Shown piece after piece: positions 5,432 to 64,000 of a stretch of DNA of 64,000 nucleotides. The stretch is from a candidate division TA06 bacterium (GTDB lineage Bacteria > Hydrothermota > DG-26 > E44-bin18), in NCBI GenBank assembly GCA_004376575.1, contig SOJN01000046.1:48709-112708 (forward strand), given 5' to 3'. The notes under the pieces are model-generated. The model was given only the letters and a program-made list of their open reading frames with translations, had not been told where the DNA came from and ran no database searches. The translations under genes were made by a program, and so were the position numbers. Within the stretch, counting starts at the first letter, position 1. Every line of letters begins with the position of its first letter.

Positions 5432-5478
5432 ACAGAAATGCGCTGGAGAAGTTTCAGCGCTGTAGTGTGCCGTTAAGT

Positions 5479-5556: not shown

Positions 5557-5560
5557 GTAC

Positions 5561-31780: not shown

Positions 31781-32127
31781 TTCAAAACGCCTCCCTGAGG
31801 GGCCATCTAACACCGTTTTCAATACACCCTGCCTTCCGCAACACACAGTATACAGCAAGAAATATGCCAACCCTGCGAGCAACTTTCGGGAAGAGCGTAA
31901 GTTTCAGTACCAGAAAGACCTAACCCAGATGAGAACGAGCATTTTCCCGGGAGGTCCGGGCCAAAAAATGGGGCCACAGGATGGCGGAAACGACAGTTTT
32001 TCTTGTAAGTTAATGAGATTGGGGAAGTTGCAAAACGCAACAAATAGTTGCGCAAACACCCCTTTCGCCCCCAGGTGTTTCCCTGTCTCAGCTTCTTTCA
32101 GGTCTGTTACCCTTCGCCAGAGCCTCG

Positions 32128-32502: not shown

Positions 32503-37632
<5,130 letters not shown>

Positions 37633-39094: not shown

Positions 39095-39177
39095 TACTAC
39101 CCCCCCGGGCCGCCTCAGAAGGTTAGGAACCAGACGCGGGGTTTTTCTGGGGAACCCTGCGAAACCCCTTGGCCGCA

Positions 39178-39378
39178 TCAGCTTGTGAGCGACGGGGCGT
39201 GCTCAACGAGCTTTGCGAAGAATGAAACAAGCCATGCGCAGTTCTTCCCCCCCCAATTGTCTTTTATGTAACTCTCGGTGTAGTCGAGATCCTTTGGGGA
39301 GGCCTGTGCAATTCTGGACACTACGTTGGCGATCTGCTCCAGCTCATACGTAGTGAGGACTGGATATTTCAGATTCAT
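39178..39378 (-). CDS. small protein, paralog A of a triplicated 59-66-aa family
   Basis: MNLKYPVLTTYELEQIANVVSRIAQ...WLVSFFAKLVEHA with a GGGAGGTGA RBS. About 60% identical to paralog B. Confidence 0.5.
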   Translation of the reverse strand: MNLKYPVLTTYELEQIANVVSRIAQASPKDLDYTESYIKDNWGGKNCAWLVSFFAKLVEHAPSLTS

Positions 39379-42883: not shown

Positions 42884-42899
42884 TGCAACAATTGTGCCA
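42884..42899 (-). promoter_or_regulatory. sigma-54 (RpoN) promoter, TGGCAC-N5-TTGCA
   Basis: The reverse complement reads ctcTGGCACaattgTTGCAtg, a perfect -24/-12 consensus with correct spacing, about 36 nt upstream of the receiver gene. Confidence 0.55.
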
Positions 42900-43129: not shown

Positions 43130-44485
43130 CTATGCTGAGATGCCGTACTTTTTTATCTTTCTGTAAATGGTCTTTCTGCCCACGCCGAGCATGTCAGCAG
43201 CCCTGCCCTTGTTTCCTCCGCACTCACTCAGGGCCTGTTCTATGAGCTGCCTCTCCATCTCTCCAATAGTAGGCATGGCACCAGGCTTGGAGAGCCTCGT
43301 GTTGGATCTGCGTTGCAGAAGCTTTGATGGAAGGTTTTGTGGCATCAGGACCTCGTCACAGTTGAGGGCGAAGGCTCTTTCCACGACATTTTCCAGTTCT
43401 CGGACATTGCCCGGCCAATCGTAGTATGCGAATGTTTCCATGCAGGCGGGAGCTACAGACTTGACCCTTCTGTTGTATTTTTCGTTAAAAATCTTGATGA
43501 AATGGTGCACCAGTATGGGTATGTCGCCTTTTCTTTCGCGCAGGGGAGGTATCTTTATGTGTACAACACTCAGTCTGTAGTAGAGGTCATTTCTCAGGGC
43601 CTTTTGTGCCAGCGCTTCGTCAACGTCGGCGTTGGTCGCGGCGATCAGCCTCACATCTGTGGGAATAGTCTGGGTACTTCCTACTGGCCTGATCTCTTGG
43701 TCCTGCAATACGCGTAGAAGCTTCACCTGGAGGAAACCGGGCATCTCACCAATTTCGTCCAAGAACAAGGTTCCACTGTCGGCAGCCCTGAAGAGGCCGA
43801 CGTTATCGCTTATTGCTCCGGTGAAAGATCCTTTCTTGTGACCAAACAGTTCACTCTCCAGAAGGTGGTGGGGGATTGCACCGCAGTTGACCGGTATGAA
43901 CGCCTTTTGCGCTCTCTTGCTGTTGAAGTGAATTGCTCTGGCCACCAGTTCCTTGCCTGTTCCACTCTCACCTTCAATAAAAATAGGACTGTCGTTTGCG
44001 GATATTCTGTGGATTATTTCGTTTATTTCACGCATCTTTGGGGATATGCTCACCAGGACGCCGAACTCCTTCTGTTCATCGAGACGTTTCTTGAGGAATG
44101 TATTCTCCTCCTTCAAGCTCCTTTTTTCCATTATGTTGGTGATCACGTGATTTATTTCCTCCATGCGTGTTGGCTTGGTCAGATAGTCAAAGGCTCCCAG
44201 CTTCAGGGCTGAAACTGCAGAGCTCACAGTTGCAAAGGCGGTTAGCATCACAGCCTCGATACTGTCATCTATGCTTCTTATTGATCTCAGTAGCTCAATC
44301 CCGTCCATCTTCGGCATCTTCAGGTCAATTATGGCAATGTCGTACTGGGAATTTCGGATCTTCTCGAGTGCTTCAGGGCCATCGGCCGCAGTTTCCACCT
44401 TGTGTCCATATGGGGTCAATCCGTCCCTCAGAGCGTCTCTCACATCCTCTTCATCGTCGACTATAAGTACCCTTGCGCTCCCCAT
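43130..44485 (-). CDS. NtrC-family sigma-54-dependent response regulator
   Basis: VLIVDDEEDVRDAL receiver, [21 protein letters not shown], and a C-terminal HTH. Confidence 0.85.
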   Translation of the reverse strand: MGSARVLIVDDEEDVRDALRDGLTPYGHKVETAADGPEALEKIRNSQYDIAIIDLKMPKMDGIELLRSIRSIDDSIEAVMLTAFATVSSAVSALKLGAFDYLTKPTRMEEINHVITNIMEKRSLKEENTFLKKRLDEQKEFGVLVSISPKMREINEIIHRISANDSPIFIEGESGTGKELVARAIHFNSKRAQKAFIPVNCGAIPHHLLESELFGHKKGSFTGAISDNVGLFRAADSGTLFLDEIGEMPGFLQVKLLRVLQDQEIRPVGSTQTIPTDVRLIAATNADVDEALAQKALRNDLYYRLSVVHIKIPPLRERKGDIPILVHHFIKIFNEKYNRRVKSVAPACMETFAYYDWPGNVRELENVVERAFALNCDEVLMPQNLPSKLLQRRSNTRLSKPGAMPTIGEMERQLIEQALSECGGNKGRAADMLGVGRKTIYRKIKKYGISA

Positions 44486-44732
44486 TTAGACCCTTTCGGA
44501 CAGACTGGCCCGCCCTTTAAGATTGCGCCGGCAGGCTCATTTCAGAAGAATTGGCCCAGTTTGGCTTTCCCTCCGGCCAGTCAAGGGTAGAATGACTTAT
44601 AGCGGAAAGGCGGGTGTGTGTCAAGGGAAATCTTGGTTCTTGGGTCACTTTTTGGGACACAGGTCACAATTGTCTCGGTTGGGGCCAAAACGGCCTTCCG
44701 TCGTATACTGCATACTGCACGTGAATTTGGTC

Positions 44733-44761
44733 TTGACAACACCGTGGTATTTCCCTATAGT
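44733..44761 (+). promoter_or_regulatory. sigma-70-type promoter (TTGACA-17-TATAGT)
   Basis: Consensus boxes about 75 nt upstream of the sigma54 activator ATG at 44837. Confidence 0.4.
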
Positions 44762-44836
44762 TATCGGTGGGTAGGGCAGGGACCGGGGTGTGCACGCAGC
44801 GTTCGTAATCTTCAGTGCAGGACTGGAGCCGACATT

Positions 44837-45820
44837 ATGGAAGGTGCAGCCCACCCATTTGAGTTTTCCGGGCTGATCAGTAAAGACGGCAAGATGCGGG
44901 CCGTCTTTAACCTGATTGAGAAGGTTGCCTCCACTAACTCGCCAGTACTGGTGCTGGGGGAGACCGGAAGCGGCAAGGAACTTGTGGCTAGGGCCATACA
45001 TGAGAGGAGCCTCAGAGCGGTCGCTCCTTTCATCGCCATAAACTGCGCGGTGCTGTCCGAAACTCTCCTTGAGAGTGAACTCTTCGGGCACGAAAGGGGT
45101 GCGTACACAGGTGCAGTATCCAGAAAACATGGGCTGTTCGAAGTCGCAGATAAGGGAACTATTTTTCTGGATGAGATTGGGGACATGCCTCAAAAGGTTC
45201 AAGCGAAACTCCTCAGGGCTCTTGAAAGCAAGTCGTTCCGAAGGGTGGGAGGGACCAGAGATGTGAAGGTTGATGTGAGGTTGCTTTCCGCATCCGCGAT
45301 GGACCTGGCAGTAGCAATCGACAATCGTGTTTTCAGGAAAGATCTTTATTATCGACTAAGCACTGTCGTAATAGAAATACCACCTCTACGGGACAGAAGG
45401 GATGACATACCCGTGTTGGTTGAGTTCTTTCTCAAGAGGCTGGAAAGGGCGGCGGGCGGAAGGAGAGTGCGCATCACAGGTGCGGCTGTGGATGCTTGTT
45501 GCACCTTTCACTGGCCTGGTAATGTGAGGGAGCTGGAGCATGTGATAGAAAGGTCTTACGTACTCTCCGAGGGAGATGTGATAGATATTCTTGATCTGCC
45601 CGAAAGGTTAAGAGAGATCAGCAAAGCACCATCCGCCGACGCACTTGTTCCGCTCGAGGAAATAGAGAGGCGCTACATAGCCAGGGTCCTGAAGGAAACC
45701 GGTGGGAATAGGACGAGGGCGGCCCGGATTCTGGGAATCGACAGGAAGACTCTCTACAGAAAGGTGAGAATGGGGCAGATTAACCCAACTGGCTCTCCGC
45801 AGGGGCAAAAAACCACATAG
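44837..45820 (+). CDS. sigma-54 activator lacking a regulatory domain (PspF/HrpS-like AAA+ + HTH)
   Basis: [15 protein letters not shown], the GAFTGA motif in its variant form GAYTGA, and a C-terminal Fis-type HTH. The start chosen is [10 protein letters not shown]. The track N-extension from 44618 is probably non-coding. Confidence 0.75.
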
Positions 45821-45902
45821 TGCCTTCCTACCTCTCCTTTGCTTCAATTCATAAGTTACCGTCCTACAAAAGGTTAGTGCAGCACTCCCACCTTCTGATC
45901 GT

Positions 45903-45918
45903 TGGCATGTTTTTTGCT
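45903..45918 (+). promoter_or_regulatory. sigma-54 promoter TGGCAT-N5-TTGCT
   Basis: ttGGcatgttttttGCt has correct GG-N10-GC spacing, about 135 nt upstream of receiver paralog 1. Confidence 0.45.
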
Positions 45919-46053: not shown

Positions 46054-46431
46054 ATGGCAAGAGTACTGATAGTTGAACAGGACGTCCTTTTTGGGAAGAT
46101 GCTAAGAGACCTGACTTCTGCCCAGGGGATAGAACCCGATTTGTGTCAAGGACTCGGAGAAGCGATTCTTAAGCTGCGGGAACACCACTACCAAGCTCTG
46201 GTTGTCGACATAGATCAGGAGAGTCTTGATCCTGCCGACGTGATTGGCGTCTTGAAGGCAGTCTCTCCCGGGGTGTCAGTTATTGCGATCACGGATGAGA
46301 ATCGGCTGGAAATGGAGAAACACGTCAGGGAACAAGGAATTTTCTATTACCTTGTGAAGCCGGTTGAGGAAAGAGAATACGCTGAAGCCGTCAATAGGGC
46401 TCTTCAATATTCGGATTCCTTCGCAGTTTGA
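46054..46431 (+). CDS. single-domain receiver protein, paralog 1
   Basis: MARVLIVEQD, Asp in ALVVDIDQ, T in AITDE, K in YYLVKP. 125 aa. About 50% identical to 49487..49864. Confidence 0.65.
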   Translation: MARVLIVEQDVLFGKMLRDLTSAQGIEPDLCQGLGEAILKLREHHYQALVVDIDQESLDPADVIGVLKAVSPGVSVIAITDENRLEMEKHVREQGIFYYLVKPVEEREYAEAVNRALQYSDSFAV

Positions 46432-46513: not shown

Positions 46514-47220
46514 TTGGCGATGTCGGAGTCGTCCAAATCAATCTATCTGATTGGCTTTTTCTTTTTCGTTACTGCTGCTGCTGCACAGGAATCAGAGCCC
46601 TACTGGAAACTGGGCAATGTTCTTCCTGATTTTGGCCGCGACTCCTATGGTGAAGACGCTTACGAAAGAAGCAGTGCATTCAGAACCGACATAAACATTG
46701 TTAGGGCCGGTCTCGACTCAGATTGGCTCTACATAGAGATAGACTGCGAGGATTCCTTCTCTGGCAGCAGTGATGACCATGCAATAGAGTTGGACAACGA
46801 CCCTCTAGACGAATCAGATAGGGGTGACTGGCTCATATACGTTGGTGGGTGTGATGCTTTGGTCGATTCGGTCTGGGTCAAGGGCAAGAATGTGGGGAAG
46901 TTGTGCGGGCGCAGGCAAGAATTTATGGATTTGACCTGATGCAGAACTTCCCGAACCCGTTTGTAAACGTGACTTCAATGCGGTTCTCAGTTCCGGGTAG
47001 ATCATCTTCAAAAGAGAAAGTGAAAACATCTATCGACATTTTTGACGTGTCGGGTCGGTTGATCAGGAGACTCATACGGGAAGATATGTTCCCCGGCGTG
47101 TATCAGGTGGTCTGGGACGGAAAGACAACGGAAGCAAAAGGCGCTCCGTCAGCGATCTATTTGTGCAGATTGAAGATTGGAGAAAGGAGCGGAACAAGAA
47201 AGGTTCTTCTGCTAAGATAA
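46514..47220 (+). pseudogene. secreted T9SS-CTD protein split by a -1 frameshift near 46890-46925
   Basis: The frame-2 ORF (46514..46939) encodes a signal peptide and an N-domain. The T9SS CTD (FDLMQNFPNPF...IDIFDVSGRLIRRL...YLCRL) continues in frame 1 up to 47220. Confidence 0.5.
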
Positions 47221-47355
47221 AGACAGTCTTGAGCGGATTGGTCGGGACCGGCCTCGGTCTATGTTCATTTTCCCGCCTTAGGGAATGGCCAATCCGCTTT
47301 TGGTTTTAGGCTCACCCTAATCGACGAAATTAACTCCAAATTACAGAGCACAAAC

Positions 47356-47440
47356 GAAAAGTACGAGGTAGGAATTCCAAAGTACAAGGCCGCGCAAAGG
47401 CGATACTTCGTACTTCGCTTCTTGTACTTTGTACTTCTTC
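47356..47440. repeat. array of AAGTAC(A/G)A(A/G)G motifs in inverted orientation (imperfect palindrome)
   Basis: aaagtacgagg and aaagtacaagg on the + strand, then cttgtactttgtacttc / cgtacttcg on the minus strand. The same motif recurs at 54490-54547. Confidence 0.5.
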
Positions 47441-47564: not shown

Positions 47565-47593
47565 TTGACAGTGCACATCAGGAAAGGTATCAT
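47565..47593 (+). promoter_or_regulatory. sigma-70-type promoter (TTGACA-17-TATCAT)
   Basis: Consensus boxes 24 nt upstream of the TTG start, which has a GGAGG RBS. Confidence 0.4.
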
Positions 47594-49316: not shown

Positions 49317-49433
49317 CGTTACGGGTGCCCCCCAATCATGACAGCGACCGCAACACGTTGGGCCGCTTTTCGAGTTTTGTAAGTTCTTTATGACACGTAT
49401 GTTACATGTCCATTACTTGTGTCCTGCAAAAGA

Positions 49434-49448
49434 GGCACGGAAATTGCA
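49434..49448 (+). promoter_or_regulatory. sigma-54 promoter GGCACG-N4-TTGCA
   Basis: agaGGCACGgaaaTTGCAgc is a perfect -24/-12 match, 39 nt upstream of the GTG start. Confidence 0.55.
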
Positions 49449-49486
49449 GCGCCTTGTTTGGCGCAGGTCAAACAAGGAGGGAAGCC

Positions 49487-49864
49487 GTGAGCGCTGTGTT
49501 GATTGTTGAGCATGACCCTGCCTACCGCAGGAAGTTTTTCGATCTTGCCTCTGAGTACACCGAGGAGACAGATTTCTGTACGCGAACCTGGCAGGCCATA
49601 GAAATGGTCCAGACCAAGAACTACTCATCCGTGGTGGTTGATCTGGACCAGGAGGGGATAGATCCCGTTGATGCGATCGAGGTGATCAAGGGGATCTCTC
49701 CGGGCACCGCAATCATAGCAGTGACCGAAAGGAACCGCCTGGAACTGGAGAAGACCGTAAGGAAAGAAGGTATCTTTTACTACATGGTCAAGCCTCTGGA
49801 CGATGATGAGTTCAGAGAAGCAATAGAGCGAGCAGTAGATTGCTACGGCGAGGCCTGGGAGTAG
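49487..49864 (+). CDS. single-domain receiver protein, paralog 2
   Basis: GTG start 6 nt after AGGAGG. VLIVEHD, VVVDLDQ, AVTE, YYMVKP. 125 aa. Confidence 0.65.
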   Translation: MSAVLIVEHDPAYRRKFFDLASEYTEETDFCTRTWQAIEMVQTKNYSSVVVDLDQEGIDPVDAIEVIKGISPGTAIIAVTERNRLELEKTVRKEGIFYYMVKPLDDDEFREAIERAVDCYGEAWE

Positions 49865-49880
49865 ACAGGCCTCGTTTTTT
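49850..49880 (+). terminator. rho-independent terminator (gaggcctg-N8-caggcctc + TTTTTT)
   Basis: Perfect 8-bp GC stem overlapping the stop codon, followed by a T6 run. Confidence 0.6.
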
Positions 49881-50512
49881 GCGATAAGCTTCGCATTTCG
49901 CCAGAGTTTCAAGCCATCTCCTGATAGAGGCTTCCCTCTGTGATCAAGGGTCTCAACTAGTTAGGAGAGGCATGGACTCTGGCACTCTTTTTGCTCAACA
50001 TTTCGTTGGGAAAGGTTCATAGGTGACGATATGGCAAACACAAACAACAAAGCTTCAAAGAATGCACCGTTTCTTTTCATGGTTGATGATGGCGATGCAT
50101 GTGCCAGCGGGCTGGTGGCTTACGGTAGGCCTCTAAGGACGTCTCTCGGTTCTCAGGAAGTTGACTCCGGGGTTGCATCCTGTGCCAGTTCCATGATGAA
50201 GTGGATGGCCATATACTCGGAAGATGGGAGCGAGCCTGAACAACATGCCCTTGTTTGGCACACAGCCTGCTTCGCTTTCTAGAGCGCTTTTCCCGCCAGT
50301 TTAACAGGGTGCTATCGTTTACCCCTATGCGGTACTGCAGAAGTAGATTCTGTCGATTGACAGAGCATCTCGTTCATCAAGGATGGGACAATTGCTAACA
50401 ACATTTTGTTACATGTGTCATTCAACTCTGGCCCAATCCGGAGCGGCAAAATGTTACAGAGCGCGAACAGAAGCTACAGAGGGCTTTTTCAGGTATTCTT
50501 TGTGGTCACATA

Positions 50513-50528
50513 TGGCACACTTATTGAT
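50513..50528 (+). promoter_or_regulatory. sigma-54-like promoter TGGCAC-N5-TTGAT (non-canonical -12)
   Basis: atatGGCACacttaTTGATac lies 70 nt upstream of ATG 50599. The same variant occurs at 54943. Confidence 0.4.
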
Positions 50529-50598
50529 ACTAAATAGATCGAGAAAGAAATCGTAATTGTGCAAACTGATAAAAAGCAGACAACATGAGGAGACAAGC

Positions 50599-53520
50599 AT
50601 GAATAAAAGTACAATAGTATTCAGCAACTGGAAATGTAGGAGATTGAAATTCCTGGCCAGCCTGGCTGCAGCAGGTTGCGTCTTGCTTTTCGCAAACCGG
50701 TGTGCAGGCGAGGTTGCCTGGTGGGACACAGACCATGACGAGAGAGCTCAGCTTATTGTTCAAAATCAATCCAGCAATACGCTTTACGCAGGGTATCCTG
50801 TGGCTGAGAGTCTGGACACCGGAACTCTCGTTTCTGCTGGCGACATGCTTGCCTCTGGAAACGATCTGAGGATTATTTACTACAATGGCGCGTCCAACGT
50901 GGAATTGGACAGGCGAATCATTTACATGAATTCCGACACCACGTTGGTCTGGTTCGCTGTTCAGCAGGATATAGCGCCTTCAGCAGCTGACAGCAACTAC
51001 TGGATGTACTACAACCACCCTTCAGCTTCAGCACCAAATGTTGACATTGACAGCATATTCGTGCCACCAAAAGATGGTTACAGTGCTGCACTCTACTTTT
51101 TCGAATCAGGCTCCGGTACGACCCTTGAAGACACTTCCGGGAATGACAATGATGGGACTGTTAATAACATGGACAACACCAACTGGGTCGAGGGAAAGCA
51201 CTCTCTTGGCCTTCACTTTGACGGGTCTAGTGAATATATCTCCGTTCCTGACGACGCCATCCTTGACATAGAAGACGAGATAACCTTGGAGACCTGGTTC
51301 AAACTCGATAATGCCTTCGGCCCCGATTCTGAAAACTATGACATGTCGCTCCTAGAAAAAGGGCCTTACGGCCTTAGGCTCGACCACGTTACAGGAGAAC
51401 TTGTATTCAGTCTTTCCGGTTGGACTGTGGAGTACGACTCTCCTCAGAGTGAGATCTATTCCTTGGCCCTCTACAACGGGAAGCTTTTCGCTGGTACTGG
51501 AGAGAGTGGCATAGTCCATACCTTTGACGGAGCCACGTGGTCTAGCGAGGACATCACTGATGAAAAGGATGTGATGTGCCTTTGCGTTTACGGAGGCAAG
51601 CTTTATGCTGGCACAGGTGAAGCGCAGGGTATTGGAGGCGGGAAGATTTATGTCTACGATGGCATAAGCTGGGTCCTGGAGTATGATACGCCAAGCAAAA
51701 ATATCCGCTCGATGGCCGTATACAGAGATACCCTTTTCGCAGGGAGCGGGAATTCGGGGTTGGTCTATAAGTTTGACGGGACTTCCTGGTCAAGTCAGGA
51801 TATTACAAACGATTGGGACATTTTCTCTCTACGAGTATACAACAACAAACTGTATGCTGGTACGGGGAACCCTTCGGCACAAGGCAAGGGATATTTCTAC
51901 TCGTACGATGGAACTTGGTCTCTTGAGTACGACAGCCCGTCAAAGAACATTTATTCGATGGCCGTATACACAGATACCCTTTTCGCGACGAGCGGGGATG
52001 AGGGGTTGGTGTATAAGTTTGACGGGACTTCCTGGTCGAGTGAAGATATTACATCACAAAAGGATGTGCTCTCCATATTTGTATATTCAGGCAAGCTCTA
52101 TGCAGGTACCGGGACCTTTGGATCTCCTATAGGGGCCGGGCTAATATACGAGTATGACGGCTCCTCATGGTCTCTTTCCTATAACACCCCTCAAAAAGAT
52201 GTATTCAGTCTTGGCGATTACAATGGCCTTCTCTATCTAGGCACTGGCAATTCTGGAATAATCTACACCTACCCTGATGAGGCGGTCTTGGCGTCTGCGC
52301 AGGGTTTATGGAACGCCGCCCAGTTCTACCACGTTGCAGGAACCTTTGATGGTTCTGACATGAAGATTTTTGTGGATGGGATTTTGGATACATCAAACTC
52401 GGTAAGTGTGATCATAGACAAGGACACTTCAGCACTGATGATTGGCGGAGGAATCGACACCACCTTTTTCAGAGGTTCTCTAGATGGTATGGGAGTTTCA
52501 GGTGTGGCGAGGACCGATTTCTGGTACGCCAAAATATCGCCAGAACCCACTGTGGCACTGGCTGGCACGGGGACATATACCTCCATGGGAGATATCAACA
52601 GGAGTACTTCGGACGGAAACATCGCCATCTATTGGCGGAGTGTCAGCGGAAGGACCTATGACGTTTTTTACTGCGATACTCTCCAGGGAACCTACACGGA
52701 TGTAGCAGATGTGGTTGCCAGTGGTGACACCACGAGCTGGACAGATGATGGTTCTGCTACGGGTACGCATCCTGATTCTGTTGTGGCCAGGTTCTACAGG
52801 GTTGAGTGCCAGACAGGAGCACTGAGCAGAAATACCACGGGCAAGATGAAGAGATCGATTGTCTCCGGGATGCAGCTCGTCAGCAACCCATTTATTCCAT
52901 ACAACTCATCGATTCAGAGTGTGCTTGGCGGACAGTTGACAGGAGCTGCGGATGAAGGGTATGCAGACAGGGTCTGGAAGTACGATACTGACATAGACGA
53001 CTACGTCTTTGCATGGCTGGTTGCTGGAGTTGGCGCGCCTTACGATGGAAAGTGGTGGAGTTCTCAGGACTTTGAGGAATCAACAATGGATCTGGGTCCT
53101 GACTGCGGTTTCTGGATACAATCGAGAAATGCAGCCCAGGAGATGACTTTTGTTGGTGAGGTCTCGGATACTTCTGACAGGGTGATATCGATTGTCTCAG
53201 GGATGCAGTTGTTTGGGAGCCCCTATCCGGATACAGTTCTCCTGAAGAACTCAGACCTGATTGAAGATGGTGCGACAGGTGCTACGACTGAACTGAATGC
53301 CGATAGGATTTGGTGGTGGGATCCTGATTCAACTAAGTACGACTATGCGTGGTTGGTGGACGATACGGGAGGCCCGAACGATAGTCTATGGTGGGATTCA
53401 GACCCCTGGGGTGAGACTTCAATCACTCTGAGGCCCGGCGAGGGTTACTGGTATCAGACAAGAGGTAACCCATTTACCTGGAGTTATTCGAAGCCCTATG
53501 ATGCGCCACCAAATCCGTAA
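50599..53520 (+). CDS. large secreted repeat protein (about 45-aa YAGTG/beta-propeller-like repeats, a LamG-like region, and a C-terminal tandem about-120-aa domain) with no T9SS CTD
   Basis: ATG 50599 has a GAGGAG RBS and a signal peptide. Repeats of the form LYAGTG...G.VY.FDG.SWS...DIT. The C-terminal 250 aa (VARFYRVE...GKWWSSQDF...WWDSDPWG...YWYQTRG) is shared with 55168..57201. Confidence 0.75.
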   Translation: MNKSTIVFSNWKCRRLKFLASLAAAGCVLLFANRCAGEVAWWDTDHDERAQLIVQNQSSNTLYAGYPVAESLDTGTLVSAGDMLASGNDLRIIYYNGASNVELDRRIIYMNSDTTLVWFAVQQDIAPSAADSNYWMYYNHPSASAPNVDIDSIFVPPKDGYSAALYFFESGSGTTLEDTSGNDNDGTVNNMDNTNWVEGKHSLGLHFDGSSEYISVPDDAILDIEDEITLETWFKLDNAFGPDSENYDMSLLEKGPYGLRLDHVTGELVFSLSGWTVEYDSPQSEIYSLALYNGKLFAGTGESGIVHTFDGATWSSEDITDEKDVMCLCVYGGKLYAGTGEAQGIGGGKIYVYDGISWVLEYDTPSKNIRSMAVYRDTLFAGSGNSGLVYKFDGTSWSSQDITNDWDIFSLRVYNNKLYAGTGNPSAQGKGYFYSYDGTWSLEYDSPSKNIYSMAVYTDTLFATSGDEGLVYKFDGTSWSSEDITSQKDVLSIFVYSGKLYAGTGTFGSPIGAGLIYEYDGSSWSLSYNTPQKDVFSLGDYNGLLYLGTGNSGIIYTYPDEAVLASAQGLWNAAQFYHVAGTFDGSDMKIFVDGILDTSNSVSVIIDKDTSALMIGGGIDTTFFRGSLDGMGVSGVARTDFWYAKISPEPTVALAGTGTYTSMGDINRSTSDGNIAIYWRSVSGRTYDVFYCDTLQGTYTDVADVVASGDTTSWTDDGSATGTHPDSVVARFYRVECQTGALSRNTTGKMKRSIVSGMQLVSNPFIPYNSSIQSVLGGQLTGAADEGYADRVWKYDTDIDDYVFAWLVAGVGAPYDGKWWSSQDFEESTMDLGPDCGFWIQSRNAAQEMTFVGEVSDTSDRVISIVSGMQLFGSPYPDTVLLKNSDLIEDGATGATTELNADRIWWWDPDSTKYDYAWLVDDTGGPNDSLWWDSDPWGETSITLRPGEGYWYQTRGNPFTWSYSKPYDAPPNP

Positions 53521-53532
53521 TAGAGAACAGAA

Positions 53533-54420
53533 ATGGAGGTGATGCCCGTGAAAAAGTTAGTTGCGTGTATTTCGTTGACGGCGTTGGTCTTTCTGATTGC
53601 AGCCCCGGCCGCATCTAATGTGGGGATAAATGTCAACTGGGGTGCATTCACTCATCCCATACTGGACAAGGGTGGCAAACCGCTGGATGATTTGTGTCTT
53701 GTTCAACTCATCTGGGATGCTGATGGAGATGGAATCGATCCGCCTGGTGAAGATGGTCTTCCTTCTGGCGGAGATGAGCTTCTTGATATCTCGTATACAG
53801 GATGTGGCAGCTTCTTTGCAGGCAAGTTCTCCGAGAATACGAATCTCAAGATTGTGGGAAGAGGTGAGTGTATCTATGTGAGAGCCTGGAATGCAGAAAA
53901 GATCGGTAAGGCCACACACTATGGTGATACGAGAGTTTTGGATCCCGGTCTGTGGGTCGTAGACAACAGGGTTGGCTTGACTGTGGATGCTACAGAAGAC
54001 ACGCCCTGGGGGACAACGCTTTGGTGGGGACCGGCGGACGTCCCGCTTGGGAGGCTGGCCAGGTACTATCGTACGGAACTCCTTCAGAACCGTCCGAATC
54101 CCTTCTTGGGGAATACGACAATAGGCTACTGCGTTCCTGGCGTACGAACCTGGGAGATGATGAAGGGTGGAGACAGGAATGCCGTATATGATGAGACTGA
54201 CCTGAATAGTGTGAGTGTCAGGATATACGATGTGTCTGGGAGGATGGTGAGGAAAGTAGTTGGTGCACACAGGCTGCCCGGCTATCACCAAATCGCCTGG
54301 GACGCAAAAGACGACCTTGGGAGAAGAGTTCCCTCGGGCTCATATTTCTGCAGGCTGTCTATTAAGAAGTCAGATGGGTCGGCCAGGACGATTACCAAGA
54401 AGATGGTGCTTTTGAAATAA
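53533..54420 (+). CDS. small secreted 'VNWGAF / WDADGDGID' protein with a T9SS C-terminal sorting domain (partner of the upstream large protein)
   Basis: Signal peptide. VNWGAFTHPILD...LVQLIWDADGDGIDPPGEDGLPSGGDELLD. CTD LLQNRPNPF...VRIYDVSGRMVRKV...SGSYFCRLS...KKMVLLK. The likely start is GTG 53548, which has GGAGGTG upstream. Confidence 0.75.
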   Translation: MEVMPVKKLVACISLTALVFLIAAPAASNVGINVNWGAFTHPILDKGGKPLDDLCLVQLIWDADGDGIDPPGEDGLPSGGDELLDISYTGCGSFFAGKFSENTNLKIVGRGECIYVRAWNAEKIGKATHYGDTRVLDPGLWVVDNRVGLTVDATEDTPWGTTLWWGPADVPLGRLARYYRTELLQNRPNPFLGNTTIGYCVPGVRTWEMMKGGDRNAVYDETDLNSVSVRIYDVSGRMVRKVVGAHRLPGYHQIAWDAKDDLGRRVPSGSYFCRLSIKKSDGSARTITKKMVLLK

Positions 54421-54446
54421 ACGACAATATCTTCCCTCCCACACAT

Positions 54447-54477
54447 GCCCTCTGTGATCAGTTTTCGCGCAGAGGGC
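54447..54477 (+). terminator. hairpin gccctctg-N15-cagagggc after the CTD gene (possible terminator)
   Basis: 8-bp GC stem. The downstream T-tract is weak. Confidence 0.3.
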
Positions 54478-54489
54478 ACTTCCTTTCTA

Positions 54490-54547
54490 CGAAGTACAAA
54501 GTACAAAATGCAAAGTACAACGCATAAGGTACGGAGTACAGTACAGA
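54490..54547. repeat. tandem AAGTACAA motif array
   Basis: cgaagtacaaagtacaaaatgcaaagtacaacg...ggtacggagtacagtacag. Confidence 0.5.
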
Positions 54548-54942
54548 GACCTCAATCCGAAAGCAAGACATTGGAACCACTAGATTACACAAGATTAACA
54601 CAGATTGAAACCCATCCTCATGGTTCAACCCGAACCAGAAGGATAATCTTGTGGTAATCTGTGAAAATCTGTGGTTCAGAGGCTTTCGAGGAGGTGGGGT
54701 CAGGCGTGCACTTTTGGACTTTTGCCCTTTGACCTTGCTCAGGACCTTTGGACTTTTGAAGAATTGCCAATTGTGAATCGGGAAAGAATGAGTAGAGAGT
54801 ACAGAGGACAAAGGCGCGAGGCGCGTAACGGTTTGTTATATCAGTACTTGGGTTCTAACCGTGGGGCACTGTGGCGGAGTGCAAAAAGCGACAAAACAGA
54901 GCCTGTGGAGCGTCTTTTGGAGACTGTTTTCGTGCTCATTTC

Positions 54943-54958
54943 TGGCACAGTTATTGAT
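54943..54958 (+). promoter_or_regulatory. sigma-54-like promoter TGGCAC-N5-TTGAT
   Basis: tcTGGCACagttaTTGATgc lies 210 nt upstream of ATG 55168. Confidence 0.4.
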
Positions 54959-55167
54959 GCTTAATGCATACGTGGGGTGCGGTGACTCGGTGGGAAATAG
55001 GCAATTGAACGGAAGGTTGGTTGTTACTAAGTGACAATAGCCGAGAGACTTACTAGGTCAAATCCTCTCGCACTGACTTATCTCTACTGCTATGAGAGCC
55101 TGGAATATGTTGTTATATTTGTCAGGAACAACGCAATGTGTTGTTACATGCCGTAGGAGGGGTTCTC

Positions 55168-57201
55168 ATGAAACCAAAACTTGTTAGAAGTAGATTCTCG
55201 GTGACTGCCCTGGTCGTCATCAGCATCATGTTCTGGGGAGTGACTTTCTCAGGAGACTGGCAGAGATACAGTGTGGATGAGAGGCCGCCAATGGACGTGA
55301 TTGCCCTGGCTGTTGGAGATGTCGATAATGATGGGGACAATGAAGTGGTAGCTGGAGGAACTGGCTCGGGACTTAGAATTTATGATGGAGCAAAATGCTC
55401 CTGGAACTCCGAAGAGATTGTCGCGGGATTGAAGATAAATTCAGTCACAGTTTCAGATGCAGACAATGATGGCGAACAAGAAGTAGTCTGCGGCACAGCC
55501 GATAAAAGGGTCATTCTGTATCAGTTCACGAGGAATGAGTGGATTGAACACATAGTCGATGCCAATGCGGGTAAAGCCGTTTTGTCAGTAGCCTGTGGAG
55601 ACGCCGACAATGACAGCTACATCGAGATCGTCGCGGGGACAGAGGGAAAGAAAGTATACATCTATGAGGGCTCAGGGGATTCGTGGACAAAGACATTGGT
55701 CGATGGAAATGCCGTGAACGATGTGATGGCCGTGGCTGTTGGAGATGCGGATGGAGATGGTCAGATGGAGATAGTGTGCGGGACAATGGGGAAGAGGGTT
55801 TACGTGTATGAGAAAAACGGGGAATCGTGGGAAAGGAGCGAAGTTGATCGCAAGGTCGGTTCCGCGGTAAGGAGTATTGACATAGGGGATTGTGATGGGG
55901 ATGGGGCGATGGAGATTGTTGTCGGCACAGACGAGAAGGGAGTGAACCAGTACAAGTGGGACGGATCGTCATGGTCAATGGAGACTATTGACTCGAAAGT
56001 GGGAGGAGAGGTTTACGGCGTGAGGATCTGTGACGTGGGTGACGACGTGTCAAGAAGACTGGCTGTCATAGTAAGAAGGAAGAAGGGGAAGAAGGGGAAC
56101 AAGGGGAACAGACTTCTGCTCTATAAGAAAGGACCGTCTGGCTGGGTTAGCACAGAGGTAGACGCTGAGGTGGAAGGAGAGGCGACAGCTCTCGCCATAG
56201 GGGATGCTAATGATGACGGGCACATTGAGCTACTTGCTGGCACATCGAAAAAGAGGAACCTTTTCATCTACGACCAATGGGCATTCTATGGTTTACAAAA
56301 AGTGACAGGGACTGATGACATTGTGCTGAACTGGCCGGGTAAACCTGGTATAACATATGAAGTTTTTTATTCCCATCAACCTTACGCGGGATTCCAGTAC
56401 GTTGCCGGTGTATCTGCGGTGACTGACTCGGTTCAGTGGATTGATGATGGCAGCATTATAGGCGTACACCCCAAGGATGTTGTTGCCAGGTACTACAGGA
56501 TCAGACTGAAGGGTTTCAAGAACTTTTCCAATACTGTTGGAAAATTCTCTAGAGCACTCGAAACTGAAATGCATCTTGTGTCTATGCCGCTTATCCCTTA
56601 TTCCACATCCGTACAGGATGTCATCGGAGACCAGCTGACGGGTGCACCAGATGAGTCGTATGCGGACAGAGTGTGGAAGTGGGATGCAGATATTCAAGAC
56701 TTTGCATACGCCTGGCTTGTTGACGGAGTCGGGCCGCCGTTTGACGGCAAGTGGTGGAGTTCTGGTCATTTCGGACCCTCCACTATGACCCTCAATTTTG
56801 GAGAGGGATTCTTCATTCAGACAAGGCACGAGAATCAAATGGTCACCTTTCTAGGCTCTGTGCCAGAGTGTGTCGTCTCCGTGGCTGATATCCGTCCGGG
56901 GTTGCAGATGATTGGCACACCATCGCCTGAGATTCTCCCGCTTGACGGTTGTGGGTTCCAGGCTAGCGGCGCAAAAGGAGCTCCGTCCGAGCTTTTGGCT
57001 GATAGAGTGTGGTACTGGGACGAGGATGGCCTTTTCTATACATACTCATGGCTTATGGACCGCACTGACGCACCTGAAGACGCCAGATGGTGGTCCTCAG
57101 ACCCCATGGGCCCGACTAAGATGACTATGATACCAGGGCAAGGTTACTGGTATCAGGCGAGAGGGACTGGATTTGCTTGGAGTTTTGCAAGACAAAGGTG
57201 A
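55168..57201 (+). CDS. secreted FG-GAP-repeat beta-propeller protein with a C-terminal tandem about-120-aa domain and no CTD
   Basis: AGGAGG RBS. Six or seven FG-GAP units (GDxDNDGxxEVVxGT...). The C-terminal 250 aa is paralogous to the end of 50599..53520. Confidence 0.75.
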   Translation: MKPKLVRSRFSVTALVVISIMFWGVTFSGDWQRYSVDERPPMDVIALAVGDVDNDGDNEVVAGGTGSGLRIYDGAKCSWNSEEIVAGLKINSVTVSDADNDGEQEVVCGTADKRVILYQFTRNEWIEHIVDANAGKAVLSVACGDADNDSYIEIVAGTEGKKVYIYEGSGDSWTKTLVDGNAVNDVMAVAVGDADGDGQMEIVCGTMGKRVYVYEKNGESWERSEVDRKVGSAVRSIDIGDCDGDGAMEIVVGTDEKGVNQYKWDGSSWSMETIDSKVGGEVYGVRICDVGDDVSRRLAVIVRRKKGKKGNKGNRLLLYKKGPSGWVSTEVDAEVEGEATALAIGDANDDGHIELLAGTSKKRNLFIYDQWAFYGLQKVTGTDDIVLNWPGKPGITYEVFYSHQPYAGFQYVAGVSAVTDSVQWIDDGSIIGVHPKDVVARYYRIRLKGFKNFSNTVGKFSRALETEMHLVSMPLIPYSTSVQDVIGDQLTGAPDESYADRVWKWDADIQDFAYAWLVDGVGPPFDGKWWSSGHFGPSTMTLNFGEGFFIQTRHENQMVTFLGSVPECVVSVADIRPGLQMIGTPSPEILPLDGCGFQASGAKGAPSELLADRVWYWDEDGLFYTYSWLMDRTDAPEDARWWSSDPMGPTKMTMIPGQGYWYQARGTGFAWSFARQR

Positions 57202-57219: not shown

Positions 57220-58146
57220 ATGCAGAAGGCGTGTGTGATTCTCTTGGGATTTGCGTTATGTCTTGTGGTTGCGAATCCGCCATCATCTGGGGCTGGTGTG
57301 GTTGCCAACGGGGACGCGTTTAGAAAAGCCATACTGGACGATGTTGGAGTAGCGGTAAACTGGGGCGCATTTCAAAATCCCATACTTGACCATGATGGTT
57401 CAGTGATAGACGATGGATGTCTTGTTCAACTCATCTGGGACGCTGATGGAGATGGAATCGATGAGCCCGGTGAAGGTGGCATTCCCTCTGGAGGGGATGA
57501 ACTTCTGGATGTCTCGTACACCAGACAGGGTTCATTCTTCCCCGGCAAATTCTCGAACAATACAACACTAGGTAACGTGGGTGTAGGTGAGCGCATCTAC
57601 GTGCGTGCCTGGAACGCAGAGACTGTTAAGAACGCAACTTACTATGGCGATACTAGACTGGTCCAGCCGAGTCTGTGGAGTGTCGGCAACAGCATGAGAA
57701 TGGCACTGGACGCGACTGAGGGTGGGAGTTGGAGCACGACAGCGCGTTGGTCACTGCAAGGAGTCCTGTTGTGGAGGTTGGAAAGGACCTATTCTGCGGA
57801 GCTCCTCCAGAACCATCCGAATCCGTTTAAAGGGCATACCGCCATAACCTATTGGGTTGCGGGTAGACGAGTGTGGGGAATGACCGATGATGGAAAGGAC
57901 ATAATCACCTATTACGGCGGATCTGATAACAACATTGCCAACGTGTCCGTGTACGATGCAACAGGTAGATGCGTTCGCAAATTAGTTGATGAGGCGCGGG
58001 TGCCTGGATTTTACCAGGTCGTCTGGGATGGAAGAGACGATCTTGGACAAAAGGTGCCCTCGAGTTCATATTTCTGCAGGCTCTCTACAAAAAACTTAGA
58101 CGGCTCGGCCACAACGATCACCAAGAAGATGATACTTCTGAAGTAG
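57220..58146 (+). CDS. small secreted 'VNWGAF / WDADGDGID' protein with a T9SS CTD (paralog of 53548..54420)
   Basis: GGAGGTG RBS in the same context as its paralog. VNWGAFQNPILD...LVQLIWDADGDGIDEPGEGGIPSGGDELLD. CTD LLQNHPNPF...VYDATGRCVRKL...SSSYFCRLS...KKMILLK. Confidence 0.8.
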   Translation: MQKACVILLGFALCLVVANPPSSGAGVVANGDAFRKAILDDVGVAVNWGAFQNPILDHDGSVIDDGCLVQLIWDADGDGIDEPGEGGIPSGGDELLDVSYTRQGSFFPGKFSNNTTLGNVGVGERIYVRAWNAETVKNATYYGDTRLVQPSLWSVGNSMRMALDATEGGSWSTTARWSLQGVLLWRLERTYSAELLQNHPNPFKGHTAITYWVAGRRVWGMTDDGKDIITYYGGSDNNIANVSVYDATGRCVRKLVDEARVPGFYQVVWDGRDDLGQKVPSSSYFCRLSTKNLDGSATTITKKMILLK

Positions 58147-58593: not shown

Positions 58594-58622
58594 TTGACTC
58601 TCACCTATCTCCAGTGTAGTAT
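58594..58622 (+). promoter_or_regulatory. sigma-70-type promoter (TTGACT-17-TAGTAT)
   Basis: Boxes seen in sequence. They place the transcription start about 58630, which supports GTG 58674 (GAGGAGGGG RBS) as the start codon. Confidence 0.4.
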
Positions 58623-58673: not shown

Positions 58674-61600
58674 GTGGCTTTCCGATCGAGAGGCTTGCCT
58701 CTCCTTTTTCTCATTCTGGCATATCCGTGCCTGGCCCTCTCTTTTGGCGCTGAGACAGAACGCACATCCCTGATAGAAATTGTCGCCCTGGGCCCTGAGA
58801 GAGTAGAGATAGAAGTCACCTGTGGCTCTATCGCTAACATGGCGTTGACAGGCGACTCTCTGAGTACCTTTTCGGTTACGATCCCCGGGTTTGATCAAGA
58901 TTGCACACCTTTTGGCCCCTGTCTGCCGGTCAAGGGCTTTGCCGTTGGCATTCCGGTGGATGCAGACCCCGCAGTCACCATTATTGAGAAGAGTTCTTAT
59001 GATCTGAAGATACCATCAGGATGGCCAAGCTCGCTGGGGAGTTCTGAGATTCAATCTCCCGTTGAGATTGGACTGGTTGGCTTCATAAGAGATCTGAAAG
59101 TTGCCCAGATTCTGATCCATCCCGTCGCTTATCTTCCTGAGACCAAAACCCTGAGGGTTTATGATCACATCAGGTTTGTTGTCAGATTTAAATCCAATTA
59201 TGCTGGTCCAATTGATGGCCTCGGTACCCAGGACCCTCTGGATAGGCTTCTGTACTCTCTGGTCATAAATCCCGAGCAGTCGAGTAAATACAAGGTGAGA
59301 AGGCAAAGAGATAACAGACAAAGCAATCTGCTCGCCGGTGGAACTGAAAGGTATAAGATCCTTGTTCAAGAAGAGGGAATATACAGGATAACTGGTTCTG
59401 AGCTTGAGGCTGCGGGCATGGAGATCGAGTGGGTAGACCCTCGTATGATCCACCTTGAAAACCTTGGTCAACCTGTTCCCCTCTATGTCCACGGGGATGC
59501 TGATGGGAAGCTGGACGAGGACGACTACCTGGAATTCTACGGAGAAGGACCAAGAGGTGACTATACTTATTTCAACATGTATGCCACTTCTAATGTGTAC
59601 TGGCTCTTTGTGGGTGATTCTCTAGGTCTTCCCATGATTGAAGAGGATGGTGGTCTTCTGGAGACTGACCCAGCGCAGTTGGAAATGCCGACCTCTTACG
59701 ATTTCGATGTACACACCGAAGTGGATAACTGGTTCGAAAGGCTTCCCAACGACACCATGGTGCAGCAGGATATGTGGTTCTGGGACATGGTGAGTGCGAG
59801 TGAGCAGGCAATAAAGGACTTTCCTCTGGATCTTCCGGATCCGGATTTGGGCTCAGGGGACACCGTTGTGGTGAAACTGGGGCTTCAGGGAATGAGCCAT
59901 CATGGGGATGTCAACCCCGACCACCACTGCTTATTCTATTTGAGCGGTGCACTTGCAGGTGGAACCTACTGGGATGGACAGCACACGCATGTTTTCAGTT
60001 CTGAGGAGGAAGGAACAGGACTGGAAAACACTGTGCTCTCTGAGTCCGGCAACAAGCTTACCATCGTGATGCCCGGGGATACGCCGGCGGGATTTGAGGA
60101 CAGAGTTCTCGTTAACTGGATTGAGATTAGCTACACAAGGCAGTATAAGGCAGAAAATGATTACATCCGTTTTTCCAAACCTCGCAATGGAAGTATCGGG
60201 CTGTATCAGTTCACCATAGAGGGTTTCACGACCCCTGAGGTTTCCATCTACAAACTGGGAAAGAGTAAGCTGGCAAATCTGTCCATAGAGCCTGTCATAT
60301 TATTTGGGGACACGTCATACCAGGCTGCTTTCCAGACGAGAATAGTCTCTGAGGGTGTGGAGTTTGTGGCCGTCGCGGAATCCAGAAAAAAGAAAGTTGT
60401 TTCGCTGGAGAAAGATCAACCTTCTGACCTGCACTCAAGCCTGAATGGTGCCGACATCATAGTCGTGGTGCATGATTCCCTGGCCGTTTCCGCAGAAGAG
60501 TATGAGACTTTTAGAGAGTCCCAGGGCTACAGGGTCGAACTGGTGAACGTGAGTGATGTTTACGATGAGTTCAGTTATGGAATAAGAGACGCAAGCGCGA
60601 TAAGAGATTTCTTGAGGTATGCCTATTTGAATTGGATTCCTCCCGCTCCTTCGATGTGTGTTCTGATTGGCGATGGTAGTAGTGACGATAGAGACCTGAA
60701 CAAGAGGGGAGGGAACCTGATCCCTGTTCACGTTGAGAGGTCCATCTACAGCGGGCTGGTGGCCAGTGATAACTGGTACGCTTGCATCATCGGCGATGAC
60801 TTTCTCCCTGATATGATTGTCTCCAGGTTTCCTGTATTGACTCGCCAGGAGCTTTCGTCTGTCATAGAAAAGCTCAAAAGGCATGAGGACAGATCCACCG
60901 TGGGTGCATGGAGGGGGAGAGTGCTCTGTGCTGCGGGTGAAGGAGGGGGCTTCGGGGTAAGATTCAGAGAGCTGATGGAAGACAGCATCGCGAAAATCTA
61001 CCTTCCAATCTGGGCTGACGGAAAGAGGGTATACGCAGAGCATCTGCCCGGAGTTGACCCTGACCCCTTTTACGGAGACAAGGGCGATCTTTTCGGCTTC
61101 TTAAATGATGGTGTGTCGGTAGTCCAGTATCTCGGCCACGGAAGTGGAGGGACTTGGTCCAACCCTTATCTTTTGACTCCCCAGGATGTGCCGGACCTGG
61201 ACAATACGGGTAAGATACCAGTGGTGGCGAGCTTCACATGTTTCACTTCCGTGTTCGACCAGCCCAGCAGACAAGGCCTGGGTGAAGCGTTGTTCCTCGA
61301 ACCGGAAGGGGGCGCAGTCGCGGTGATCGGGGCAACATCCCTCGGCTATTTCTGGGAGGATGTGGACCTGGCGCGCTCATTCAACCAGACGATGGTGGAG
61401 GATTCCACAAGAACCGTGGGGTCGCTCTTCTATGGTTCAAAACTGAACTACGCATTCTCCAACTATGGAGGCTACGCCGCCACAATGATTAAGTGCTACT
61501 GCATGCTGGGTGATCCCGCCTCCCGGTTCTCATTACCAGTTCGAGAAGTTGAAGTGGGTGTCTATCCCCGGTCTGTGGGCAAAGGCGACAGCGTGAGATT

Positions 61601-63509: not shown

Positions 63510-64000
63510 GTTTTAGGCTGGGCATAGGTATTGTTGCAGTAGTTCTTGTGTTTCCTGTTACATCATCAGGGGGAAGATATGCCGGCGACTTCCTGGACAT
63601 TGGGGTGGGGGGAAGGGCCCTGGGTATGGGGGGAGCTTTTGTTGCTCTGGCCAACGATGGTAGTGCGGCGTTTTTCAATCCTGCTGGTTTTGGACAGCTT
63701 GAAAAGAAGGGAATAACCCTTATGCACACCTGGCTCTTTATGGGGATGGCGAACTATGACTTTTTGAGTTTTGCCGGCCCTGTTGGAGACGGTCTTGGCA
63801 TAGGCCTCTCGTTGGTAAGGCTGGGCGTGGACGAGATTCCCATCTTTCCCGAGCTTTCAGGAACACCTGATGAAAGGAGAGACTCCCTGGAGTTGAGGCC
63901 TGACGGTACGCCTCTGGGGTATTTTCAAGATGCGGAATATGCCGCTTACCTGAGCGTGGGCAAGGCTATCACTTACGAGTTTGGAAAAGGTGTGAGGTAT
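63506..64000 (+). CDS. FadL-family outer-membrane beta-barrel, possibly a PorV/PorQ-type T9SS protein (3'-truncated by the window end)
   Basis: The ATG overlaps the peptidase stop (ATGA). Signal peptide. GGRALGMGGAFVALANDGSAAFFNPAG resembles the FadL/PorV N-terminal motif. Confidence 0.45.
   Translation, partial: MSFRLGIGIVAVVLVFPVTSSGGRYAGDFLDIGVGGRALGMGGAFVALANDGSAAFFNPAGFGQLEKKGITLMHTWLFMGMANYDFLSFAGPVGDGLGIGLSLVRLGVDEIPIFPELSGTPDERRDSLELRPDGTPLGYFQDAEYAAYLSVGKAITYEFGKGVRY

Follow-up and report, generated by a model that had tools for sequence, protein, structure and literature searches.

The stretch of DNA analyzed here (64 kb from a candidate division TA06 bacterium; referred to below as the window) contains an exopolysaccharide cluster at 9.9-29.8 kb, a signalling block at 32.5-45.8 kb that encodes four enhancer-binding proteins, a histidine kinase, and receivers, and secreted-protein genes at 46-64 kb, with genes for a PorU-like sortase and a PorV-family protein at the end. 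Here, we focus on two operons among the secreted-protein genes and on a short element, TGGCAC-N5-TTGAT, that lies in front of each of them. In the first (the LamG operon), a large LamG/Kelch-like secreted protein is encoded together with a smaller partner, and in the second (the FG-GAP operon), an FG-GAP beta-propeller protein is likewise encoded together with a partner (Table 1). The partner genes start 27 nucleotides (nt) (LamG operon; 12 nt if the alternative ATG at 53533 is used) and 18 nt (FG-GAP operon) after the stop codon of the preceding gene, and terminator-like hairpins separate the transcription units. The initial annotation had described the large proteins as cargo of the type IX secretion system (T9SS). 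This description holds for the small downstream partners, which carry the T9SS sorting domain, and not for the LamG (973 amino acids [aa]) and FG-GAP (677 aa) proteins, in which no match to a T9SS sorting domain was found. Because the large proteins lack the sorting domain and their partners have it, piggy-back or partner-mediated secretion is suggested.

Sigma-54 promoters have the consensus TGGCACG-N4-TTGCW and are activated by AAA+ enhancer-binding proteins of the NtrC/NifA/PspF class. The element TGGCAC-N5-TTGAT occurs twice in the window, where 0.06 matches are expected, and none of 100 shuffles gave two. The two matches begin at 50513 and 54943, exactly where the initial annotation had placed them, before both large genes. 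They are intergenic, with the LamG ATG (50599) 86 nt and the FG-GAP ATG (55168) 225 nt downstream. Both elements contain the GG at -24/-25 within TGGCAC and have the correct spacing and the correct TTG, while the GC dinucleotide at -12/-13 is missing from both, as TTGAT has an A in place of the C. When the pattern was widened to TGGCAY-N5-TTGMW, the window yielded seven matches (0.23 expected), six of which are intergenic and face a gene. The LamG promoter region is 96-97% identical in L006, a near-strain, versus 79-86% for the adjacent coding sequence (CDS). From the positions of the elements, we infer start sites at ~50539 for the LamG operon and ~54969 for the FG-GAP operon, which would give leaders of ~60 nt and ~199 nt, respectively. 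Collectively, we consider it very probable that both TGGCAC-N5-TTGAT elements are sigma-54 (RpoN)-dependent promoters, each driving a two-gene operon that encodes a large secreted protein of the beta-propeller/lectin type and a ~300-aa partner with a T9SS sorting domain.

Orthologous promoters support this reading. Orthologous loci (given L numbers here) were gathered via protein searches and contig look-ups, which yielded nine FG-GAP lineages (45-100% aa identity) and two LamG lineages. Metagenome contigs were also scanned with the FG-GAP alignment (three loci, with usable upstream sequence in L016 alone), and genome contigs were scanned with the LamG protein (just two distant matches, from Bacteroidales and Marinilabiliales, which were not useful). 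A -24/-12 element was found upstream of the start in 9 of 9 FG-GAP and 2 of 2 LamG lineages, at distances of 72-226 nt in the orthologs; in the L007 LamG homolog, for example, it reads TGGCACGCTTATTGCT and lies 72 nt before the ATG. The GG (11 lineages), the TT, and the G are invariant across all ortholog and paralog promoters, and five lineages (L011, L014, L015, L016, and L007) have the canonical TTGC. Background matches to the promoter matrix amounted to 0.09-0.53 per kb per strand (0.09 at a score of ≥0.85, which is the score of the TTGAT elements or above). Further upstream matches scoring ≥0.78 were present only in L007 (a single weak one, 0.80, 493 nt upstream) and in L016 (two, from the upstream small open reading frame [ORF]). 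Within ~120 kb of fetched loci, TGGCAY-N5-TTGAT was confined to these promoter positions. Thus, the RpoN dependence put forward in the initial annotation is well supported: the -24/-12 element is present upstream of the orthologs of both genes in related genomes, at an equivalent place, and the window also contains four sigma-54 activators and five canonical promoters.

Four of these five canonical -24/-12 elements were found with the pattern TGGCAY-N5-TTGCW and the fifth, at 49433, with the looser GGCAC-N5-TTGC. Taken with the two TTGAT elements, at least seven predicted sigma-54 promoters are strung between 31.8 and 55 kb. A Walker A motif and a GAFTGA-type loop are present in each of the four enhancer-binding proteins. 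In the mechanism that we propose, based on what is established for sigma-54, RNA polymerase with this factor would bind the GG at -24 and the TTGA(T) at -12 to form a closed complex; this complex would wait for a hexameric enhancer-binding protein bound ~70-130 bp upstream, which would loop back and open the DNA using ATP. The four activators encoded within 20 kb would be available for this role. Sigma-54 binding and the pairing of activators with sites are steps that we infer, like the start sites, from features observed directly (the sequence elements, their conservation, the paralogy described below, and the activator genes).

Several observations weigh against sigma-54 dependence. No rpoN gene was found within the 64-kb window. 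In the window clade, the FG-GAP element lies 225 nt before the ATG, which is unusually long compared to 86-90 nt in the TTGC lineages. A search for a common activator palindrome (GCAC-N9-GTGC, TGT-N10-ACA, or inverted repeats with arms of ≥6 bp) revealed none shared across all promoter lineages, and the candidate inverted repeats, which lie 69, 110, and 111 nt upstream of the -24 box, differ between promoters and lineages. Also, the TTGAT promoter may bind sigma-54 poorly or not at all, because the -12 C is part of the TGC that, together with the GG, has been described as an essential sigma-54 promoter element (PMC3844500). Validated Escherichia coli promoters with deviant -12 regions have been listed (PMC12316311).

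Table 1. Features of the window and of orthologous promoters. Positions are those of the window unless a locus is named.
Feature	Position	Strand	Sequence	Remarks
LamG/Kelch-like secreted protein, 973 aa	50599-53520	+		First gene of LamG operon
Partner, 290 aa, with T9SS C-terminal sorting domain (FlgD_ig/Por_Secre_tail)	53548-54420	+		Second gene of LamG operon
FG-GAP beta-propeller protein, 677 aa	55168-57201	+		First gene of second (FG-GAP) operon
Partner, 308 aa, with T9SS C-terminal domain	57220-58146	+		55% identical to product of 53548-54420
PorU-like T9SS sortase (C25 peptidase), 1611 aa	58674-63509	+		Followed by PorV-family gene (region 58674-64000; L008 4242-10096)
Sigma-54-type -24/-12 element, A at -12	50513-50528	+	TGGCACACTTATTGAT	LamG operon
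Sigma-54-type -24/-12 element, A at -12	54943-54958	+	TGGCACAGTTATTGAT	FG-GAP operon
Predicted canonical sigma-54 promoter	49433-49448	+	AGGCACGGAAATTGCA	Single-domain receiver 49487-49864; conserved in L010 and L011
Predicted canonical sigma-54 promoter	49980-49995	+	TGGCACTCTTTTTGCT	83-aa ORF 50031-50282; conserved in L010, L011, and L016
Predicted canonical sigma-54 promoter	45903-45918	+	TGGCATGTTTTTTGCT	Paralog-1 receiver (single-domain) 46054-46431
Predicted canonical sigma-54 promoter	42884-42899	-	TGGCACAATTGTTGCA	Receiver and histidine-kinase operon (42848-40668)
Predicted canonical sigma-54 promoter	31854-31869	-	TGGCATATTTCTTGCT	86-aa ORF 31779-31520
Enhancer-binding protein, no receiver domain	44618-45820	+		AAA+ domain, GAYTGA loop, Fis-type helix-turn-helix (HTH); activator gene closest to the modules
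NtrC-type response regulator/enhancer-binding protein	43130-44485	-		GSFTGA loop
NtrC-type response regulator/enhancer-binding protein	37718-39178	-		GAFTGA loop
Enhancer-binding protein, 1709 aa	32503-37632	-		Ser/Thr kinase, AAA_16 (STAND-like), TPR, GAF, sigma-54 activator, and HTH; GSFTGA loop
9-mer, copy 1	49400-49408	+	TGTTACATG	~-55 from inferred start site of receiver promoter; orthologs keep TGTTA only
9-mer, copy 2	50407-50415	+	TGTTACATG	~-128 from inferred LamG start site
9-mer, copy 3	55142-55150	+	TGTTACATG	FG-GAP leader, ~+178, just 5' of ribosome-binding site
9-mer, copy 4	24683-24691	+	TGTTACATG	Inside glycosyltransferase ORF 23948-24988; taken as chance
Inverted repeat	50396-50411	+	TAACAA-catt-TTGTTA	Right arm is 9-mer copy 2; centred ~110 nt upstream of -24; lineage-specific candidate activator site
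Imperfect inverted repeat	54825-54839	+	GTAAC-ggttt-GTTAT	~111 nt upstream of -24; perfect GTAACA-ctt-TGTTAC in L013
Inverted repeat (GCAC-N9-GTGC)	54866-54882	+	GCACTGTGGCGGAGTGC	Centred 69 nt upstream of -24; candidate activator site
Heptamer arrays	54488-54800; 47355-47440; 5388-5592; L013 240-560; L010 3770-3800
FG-GAP promoter, window, L006, and L013 (81-100% aa identity)			TGGCACagttaTTGAT	225 nt to start
FG-GAP promoter, L008 (74% aa identity)			TGGCATaataaTTGAT	226 nt to start; TTGAT
FG-GAP promoter, L014 (60% aa identity)			TGGCACgctctTTGCC	90 nt to start; TTGCC
FG-GAP promoter, L010 (53% aa identity)			TGGCACagttcTTGAT	141 nt to start; TTGAT
FG-GAP promoter, L011 (49% aa identity)			TGGCAGgcttcTTGCG	86 nt to start; TTGC
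FG-GAP promoter, L015 (49% aa identity)			TGGCACgctttTTGCT	87 nt to start; TTGC
FG-GAP promoter, L016 (45% aa identity)			TGGCACgcttcTTGCG	TTGC
LamG promoter, window and L006			TGGCACacttaTTGAT	86 nt to start; TTGAT
LamG promoter, L007 (45% aa identity, different genomic context)			TGGCACgcttaTTGCT	72 nt to start; TTGCT

A second claim of the initial annotation was that the 9-mer TGTTACATG, reported three times in intergenic DNA, is an operator shared by these genes. Our results do not support this claim; rather than being a shared operator, the 9-mer probably recurs by chance in locally TGTTA/TTGTTA-rich, lineage-specific sequence. There are four copies rather than three, the additional one (24683) being within a coding sequence, and the copy given as 50406 begins at 50407. 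The other three are indeed intergenic, provided that the receiver starts at GTG 49487. Three intergenic copies had been thought unlikely to arise by chance, yet 11 different 9-mers reach ≥3 copies in the 8.1 kb of intergenic DNA (2.3 ± 1.8 in Markov-1 controls), and 224 9-mers occur ≥4 times in the whole window (~101 expected). The positions of the copies relative to the inferred start sites at ~49459, 50539, and 54969 are inconsistent (~-55, -128, and +178, respectively). The 9-mer is also not conserved, being present upstream of orthologs in identical or near-identical strains only: the receiver copy aligns with TGTTATCAT in L010 and TGTTAAGGT in L011, and the FG-GAP leader copy aligns with CGTTACATG in L013 and TGTTACATA in L008. 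In a 64-kb window, 9-mers found to be repeated post hoc are no evidence for an operator.

Copy 1 of the 9-mer contains the ATG (49406) that automatic calls use as the start of the receiver gene. We rejected this start in favor of GTG 49487, which is almost certainly correct because it is preceded by a GGAGG ribosome-binding site, because it matches the 125-aa paralog and the orthologs, and because the ATG and the GTG flank the predicted sigma-54 promoter. We also rejected as a gene the annotated 97-aa ORF at 54671-54964, which overlaps the second TTGAT promoter; the stretch 54512-54800 is missing in L006, and the sequence is different in L013 and L008. The 97-aa ORF and the receiver start placed 81 nt too far upstream (49406-49486) are likely errors in the public annotation. 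A 25-codon ORF that begins at the ATG inside TTGATG (54957) keeps its frame in L008 and sits upstream of the inferred start site.

It is still conceivable, though unlikely, that TGTTACATG marks real lineage-specific sites (TTGTTAC/TGTTA half-sites) of an activator or repressor, that is, a shared operator limited to the window clade. In an unbiased k-mer test of four intergenic regions, TTGTTA came out on top (6 copies versus 11 in the other 62.5 kb), and GTTGTTA (4 versus 2) and TGTTAC (5 versus 7) pointed the same way; however, the enrichment is not significant relative to other intergenic DNA after correction (p = 1.5e-4, 982 tests). Inverted repeats of the TGTTA type are centred ~110 nt upstream of both TTGAT promoters, which is a typical enhancer distance, but the spacing of their half-sites is 6 nt at one promoter and 3 nt at the other (TAACA/TGTTA register). 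Similarly, a palindrome in the leader, TTGTTACTAAGTGACAA, is invariant in L006, L013, and L008, whereas the 9-mer mutates already among close relatives, its copies lie at -55, -128, and +178, and TTGTTA-type motifs are missing upstream in L007, L010 (FG-GAP region), L011, L015, and L016. Another candidate site, the inverted repeat GCACTGTGGCGGAGTGC, shows no differences among L006, L013, and L008, although the sequence on either side of it is variable.

Directly upstream of the receiver-2 promoter, a block at 49390-49432 is strongly conserved across lineages (L010 3921-3962; L011 1818-1860). It has the form GACAC-N22-GTGTC, with an internal ATTAC..GTGTCCTGCAAA, and a similar TTACCGTCCTACAAAAG is present at 45855-45872, upstream of the receiver-1 promoter. 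As a possible regulator site, this block is more promising than the 9-mer that overlaps it.

To describe the A at -12, we placed the promoter variants on a neighbour-joining tree of the FG-GAP proteins. L011, L015, and L016, all with TTGC, form one group; L014 (TTGCC) groups with L010 (TTGAT) with a bootstrap value of 99/100; and the window clade, all with TTGAT, is supported at 100/100. The five FG-GAP sequences with TTGAT (window, L006, L013, L008, and L010) therefore represent two branches of the tree, and these groups, together with the LamG pair, indicate that the -12 position changed at least three times. The base at -12 is only ever C or A; the A is always followed by T, while the base after C is variable. 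In L008 and L013, the spacer and flanks vary, and the GG, the TTG, and the A/C position are kept. Such divergence around unchanged key bases among close relatives suggests a functional variant that is tolerated or selected rather than a decaying site. The A at -12 is a lineage variant of the canonical TTGC promoter that reflects a recurrent C-to-A change.

A stronger claim would be that TGGCACA-N4-TTGAT is a distinct, selected sigma-54 promoter subclass in TA06 and its relatives, in which A-T at -12/-11 replaces C and which arose repeatedly at operons for surface proteins and T9SS partners. We regard this idea as improbable. If it were true, the closed complex would be held differently (for example, through weaker fork-junction repression, a different activator dependence, or a second RpoN paralog), and the operons would be regulated differently from the nearby receiver genes with their canonical TTGC promoters. 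Together, the orthologous promoters form a natural series with variation (C or A) at a -12 position whose C is supposedly essential, well suited to asking how the -12/-11 step is read by sigma-54. In addition, sigma-54 predictors with matrices tuned to TTGC would miss real promoters here.

The likeness of the two TTGAT promoters must also be viewed in light of the relationship between the operons, which was overlooked in the initial annotation. The operons are paralogous two-gene modules: over their C-terminal 300 aa, which contain two ADRxWxWD...GxGYWYQ repeats, the LamG and FG-GAP proteins share 47% identity, and the partners are related as well (Table 1). Residues 14-656 of the LamG protein match the L007 LamG protein (L007 10001-12604), whose sorting domain is fused, and the remainder matches the FG-GAP module. 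These matches make the LamG protein a chimera, with an N-terminal part that is L007-like and a C-terminal part of the FG-GAP-module type. In L010 and L011, the receiver gene is followed by the small ORF, the FG-GAP gene, and the partner gene, and the LamG module is missing, which places the insertion of the LamG operon in the window lineage. The blocks that contain the two TTGAT promoters have 29 of 37 nt in common (score of 34, versus 18.2 ± 2.0 for shuffled sequences), and since the operons are paralogous, this similarity is partly inherited.

Taken to its extreme, this relationship would make the recurrence of the TTGAT element purely genealogical, with the promoter copied along with the duplicated modules and therefore uninformative about present co-regulation. 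The identities of the partners (55%) and of the C-terminal regions (47%) fit such a history, as does the fact that the promoter similarity (29/37 nt) extends beyond the sigma-54 core. However, the part of the LamG operon that was duplicated is its 3' portion, whereas its 5' portion and promoter resemble the L007 LamG gene, which has its own TTGCT promoter elsewhere; thus, the two promoters in the window are probably not recent copies. Moreover, protein identities of 47-55% imply that the split is old, and 37-nt blocks free of constraint would not have remained 78% identical since then. We therefore give a purely genealogical origin little credence; shared ancestry and shared constraint both contribute to the recurrence of the TTGAT element.

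Finally, it is very improbable that the TTGAT elements have decayed or been silenced as sigma-54 promoters, inactivated by the loss of the -12 C, and that their operons now rely on others (such as, for FG-GAP, the weak TG-extended sigma-70-like site ATGAGA-16-TATATT at 55092-55119, which has 9/12 matches and lies 50 nt before the ATG): although the -12 TGC is regarded as essential (PMC3844500) and this site does lie within the long 199-nt leader of the window clade, TTGAT is kept in lineages whose proteins are only 50-74% identical and whose flanks and spacer have diverged, where a dead site would drift; the -12 base is restricted to C or A, with T following every A; no sigma-70-like site was found before the LamG gene, which thus lacks such an alternative; and the -10 hexamer of the FG-GAP site is lost in L008, where it reads TGCATT.

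Sigma-54 control, as read here, does not extend to every secretion-linked gene nearby. The promoter of porU is sigma-70-like, not sigma-54 (TTGACT-17-TAGTAT, 58594-58622), and a cargo gene at 47695 has a good sigma-70-like promoter at 47565-47593; the sigma-54 set therefore excludes some secretion-linked genes. The PorU-like sortase matches NF033707 with an E value of 1.8e-95, below the curated cut-off, and the PorV/PorQ-family protein scores above its own cut-off. The region 46520-47220 holds two ORFs in different frames, one of 139 aa with a signal peptide and, after it, one of 93 aa whose product begins with the sorting-domain motif FPNPF; together they resemble a small cargo gene that has been frameshifted or split.

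The FG-GAP leader (54969-55167) is ~199 nt in the window clade versus ~60 nt in the TTGC lineages and is highly conserved down to L008. Within it, CUAUGAGAG is predicted to pair with UUCUCAUG, which would sequester the start codon; this pairing has no covariation support. A structured leader at 54966-55175 was considered and rejected, as the minimum free energy z-score was -0.69 and compensatory changes were seen in 0 of 66 predicted pairs. An Rfam scan of 44-59 kb at E ≤ 1 returned just a spurious internal ribosome entry site match inside a CDS and no known RNA element in the long leader.

Several other features of the region were conserved or otherwise distinctive. An 83-86-aa ORF of unknown function, with its own predicted sigma-54 promoter, is always located between the receiver and the FG-GAP operon (50031-50282; L010 4563-4814; L011 3215-3475; L016 ~1500-1766). 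The C terminus of its product, HALVWH[T/N]ACFAF, is encoded in part by TGGCAC (Trp-His codons), which mimics a -24 box at 50256. The 86-aa ORF on the minus strand at 31779-31520 has a very basic C terminus and lies between an Omp85 gene and the giant activator gene, whose 1709-aa product (32503-37632, minus strand) is of unusual size for a one-component enhancer-binding protein. Heptamer arrays in intergenic DNA (TACAAAG/AAGTACA, ATCTAAG/AGATCT, and GGACTTTTG) follow the terminators of secreted-protein genes. One of these stretches, 54488-54800, is strain variable: 54512-54800 is absent from L006, and L013 carries a different insert of ~400 nt.

The two promoters resemble canonical sigma-54 promoters in the TGGCAC at -24, the exact 4+1-nt spacing to TTG, their intergenic and gene-facing location, the activators with GAFTGA-type loops clustered nearby, and the fully canonical form of orthologous promoters. 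They differ in having GA at -12 in place of a near-invariant GC, a variant that has been retained or has re-evolved in several lineages. Natural sigma-54 promoters without a consensus -12 region, which matrix predictors miss, are known as single cases in one species; here, unlike in those cases, the same C-to-A substitution (followed by T) is found repeatedly in promoters, both orthologous and paralogous, that have diverged. TA06 is a new phylum for sigma-54, and the target genes are a new class for it. In Bacteroidota, T9SS genes are regulated by PorX/PorY and the extracytoplasmic function (ECF) sigma factor SigP. The system described here is similar in that a two-component-type signalling input would reach type IX secretion-linked genes, but the Bacteroidota system uses the PorX response regulator and an ECF factor of the sigma-70 family, whereas here sigma-54 would act with AAA+ activators. 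In the literature that we searched, nothing beyond incidental mentions linked RpoN to type IX secretion, and nothing relevant was found on secretion systems in TA06. A comparative-genomics proposal casts sigma-54 as a controller of the bacterial exterior, and an association with the cell envelope has been noted (PMC4551910). The operons described here agree with that view, as the targets are secreted or surface proteins and adjoin an exopolysaccharide cluster and secretion machinery; the view, however, describes a general trend rather than a defined system and does not predict the -12 variant. If confirmed, our findings would extend sigma-54 control to type IX secretion-linked operons in an uncultured phylum. 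On balance, the TTGAT elements are best described as sigma-54 promoters of an ordinary kind, found in a phylum and a gene context that are new, and their recurrent -12 C-to-A variant is a modest curiosity.

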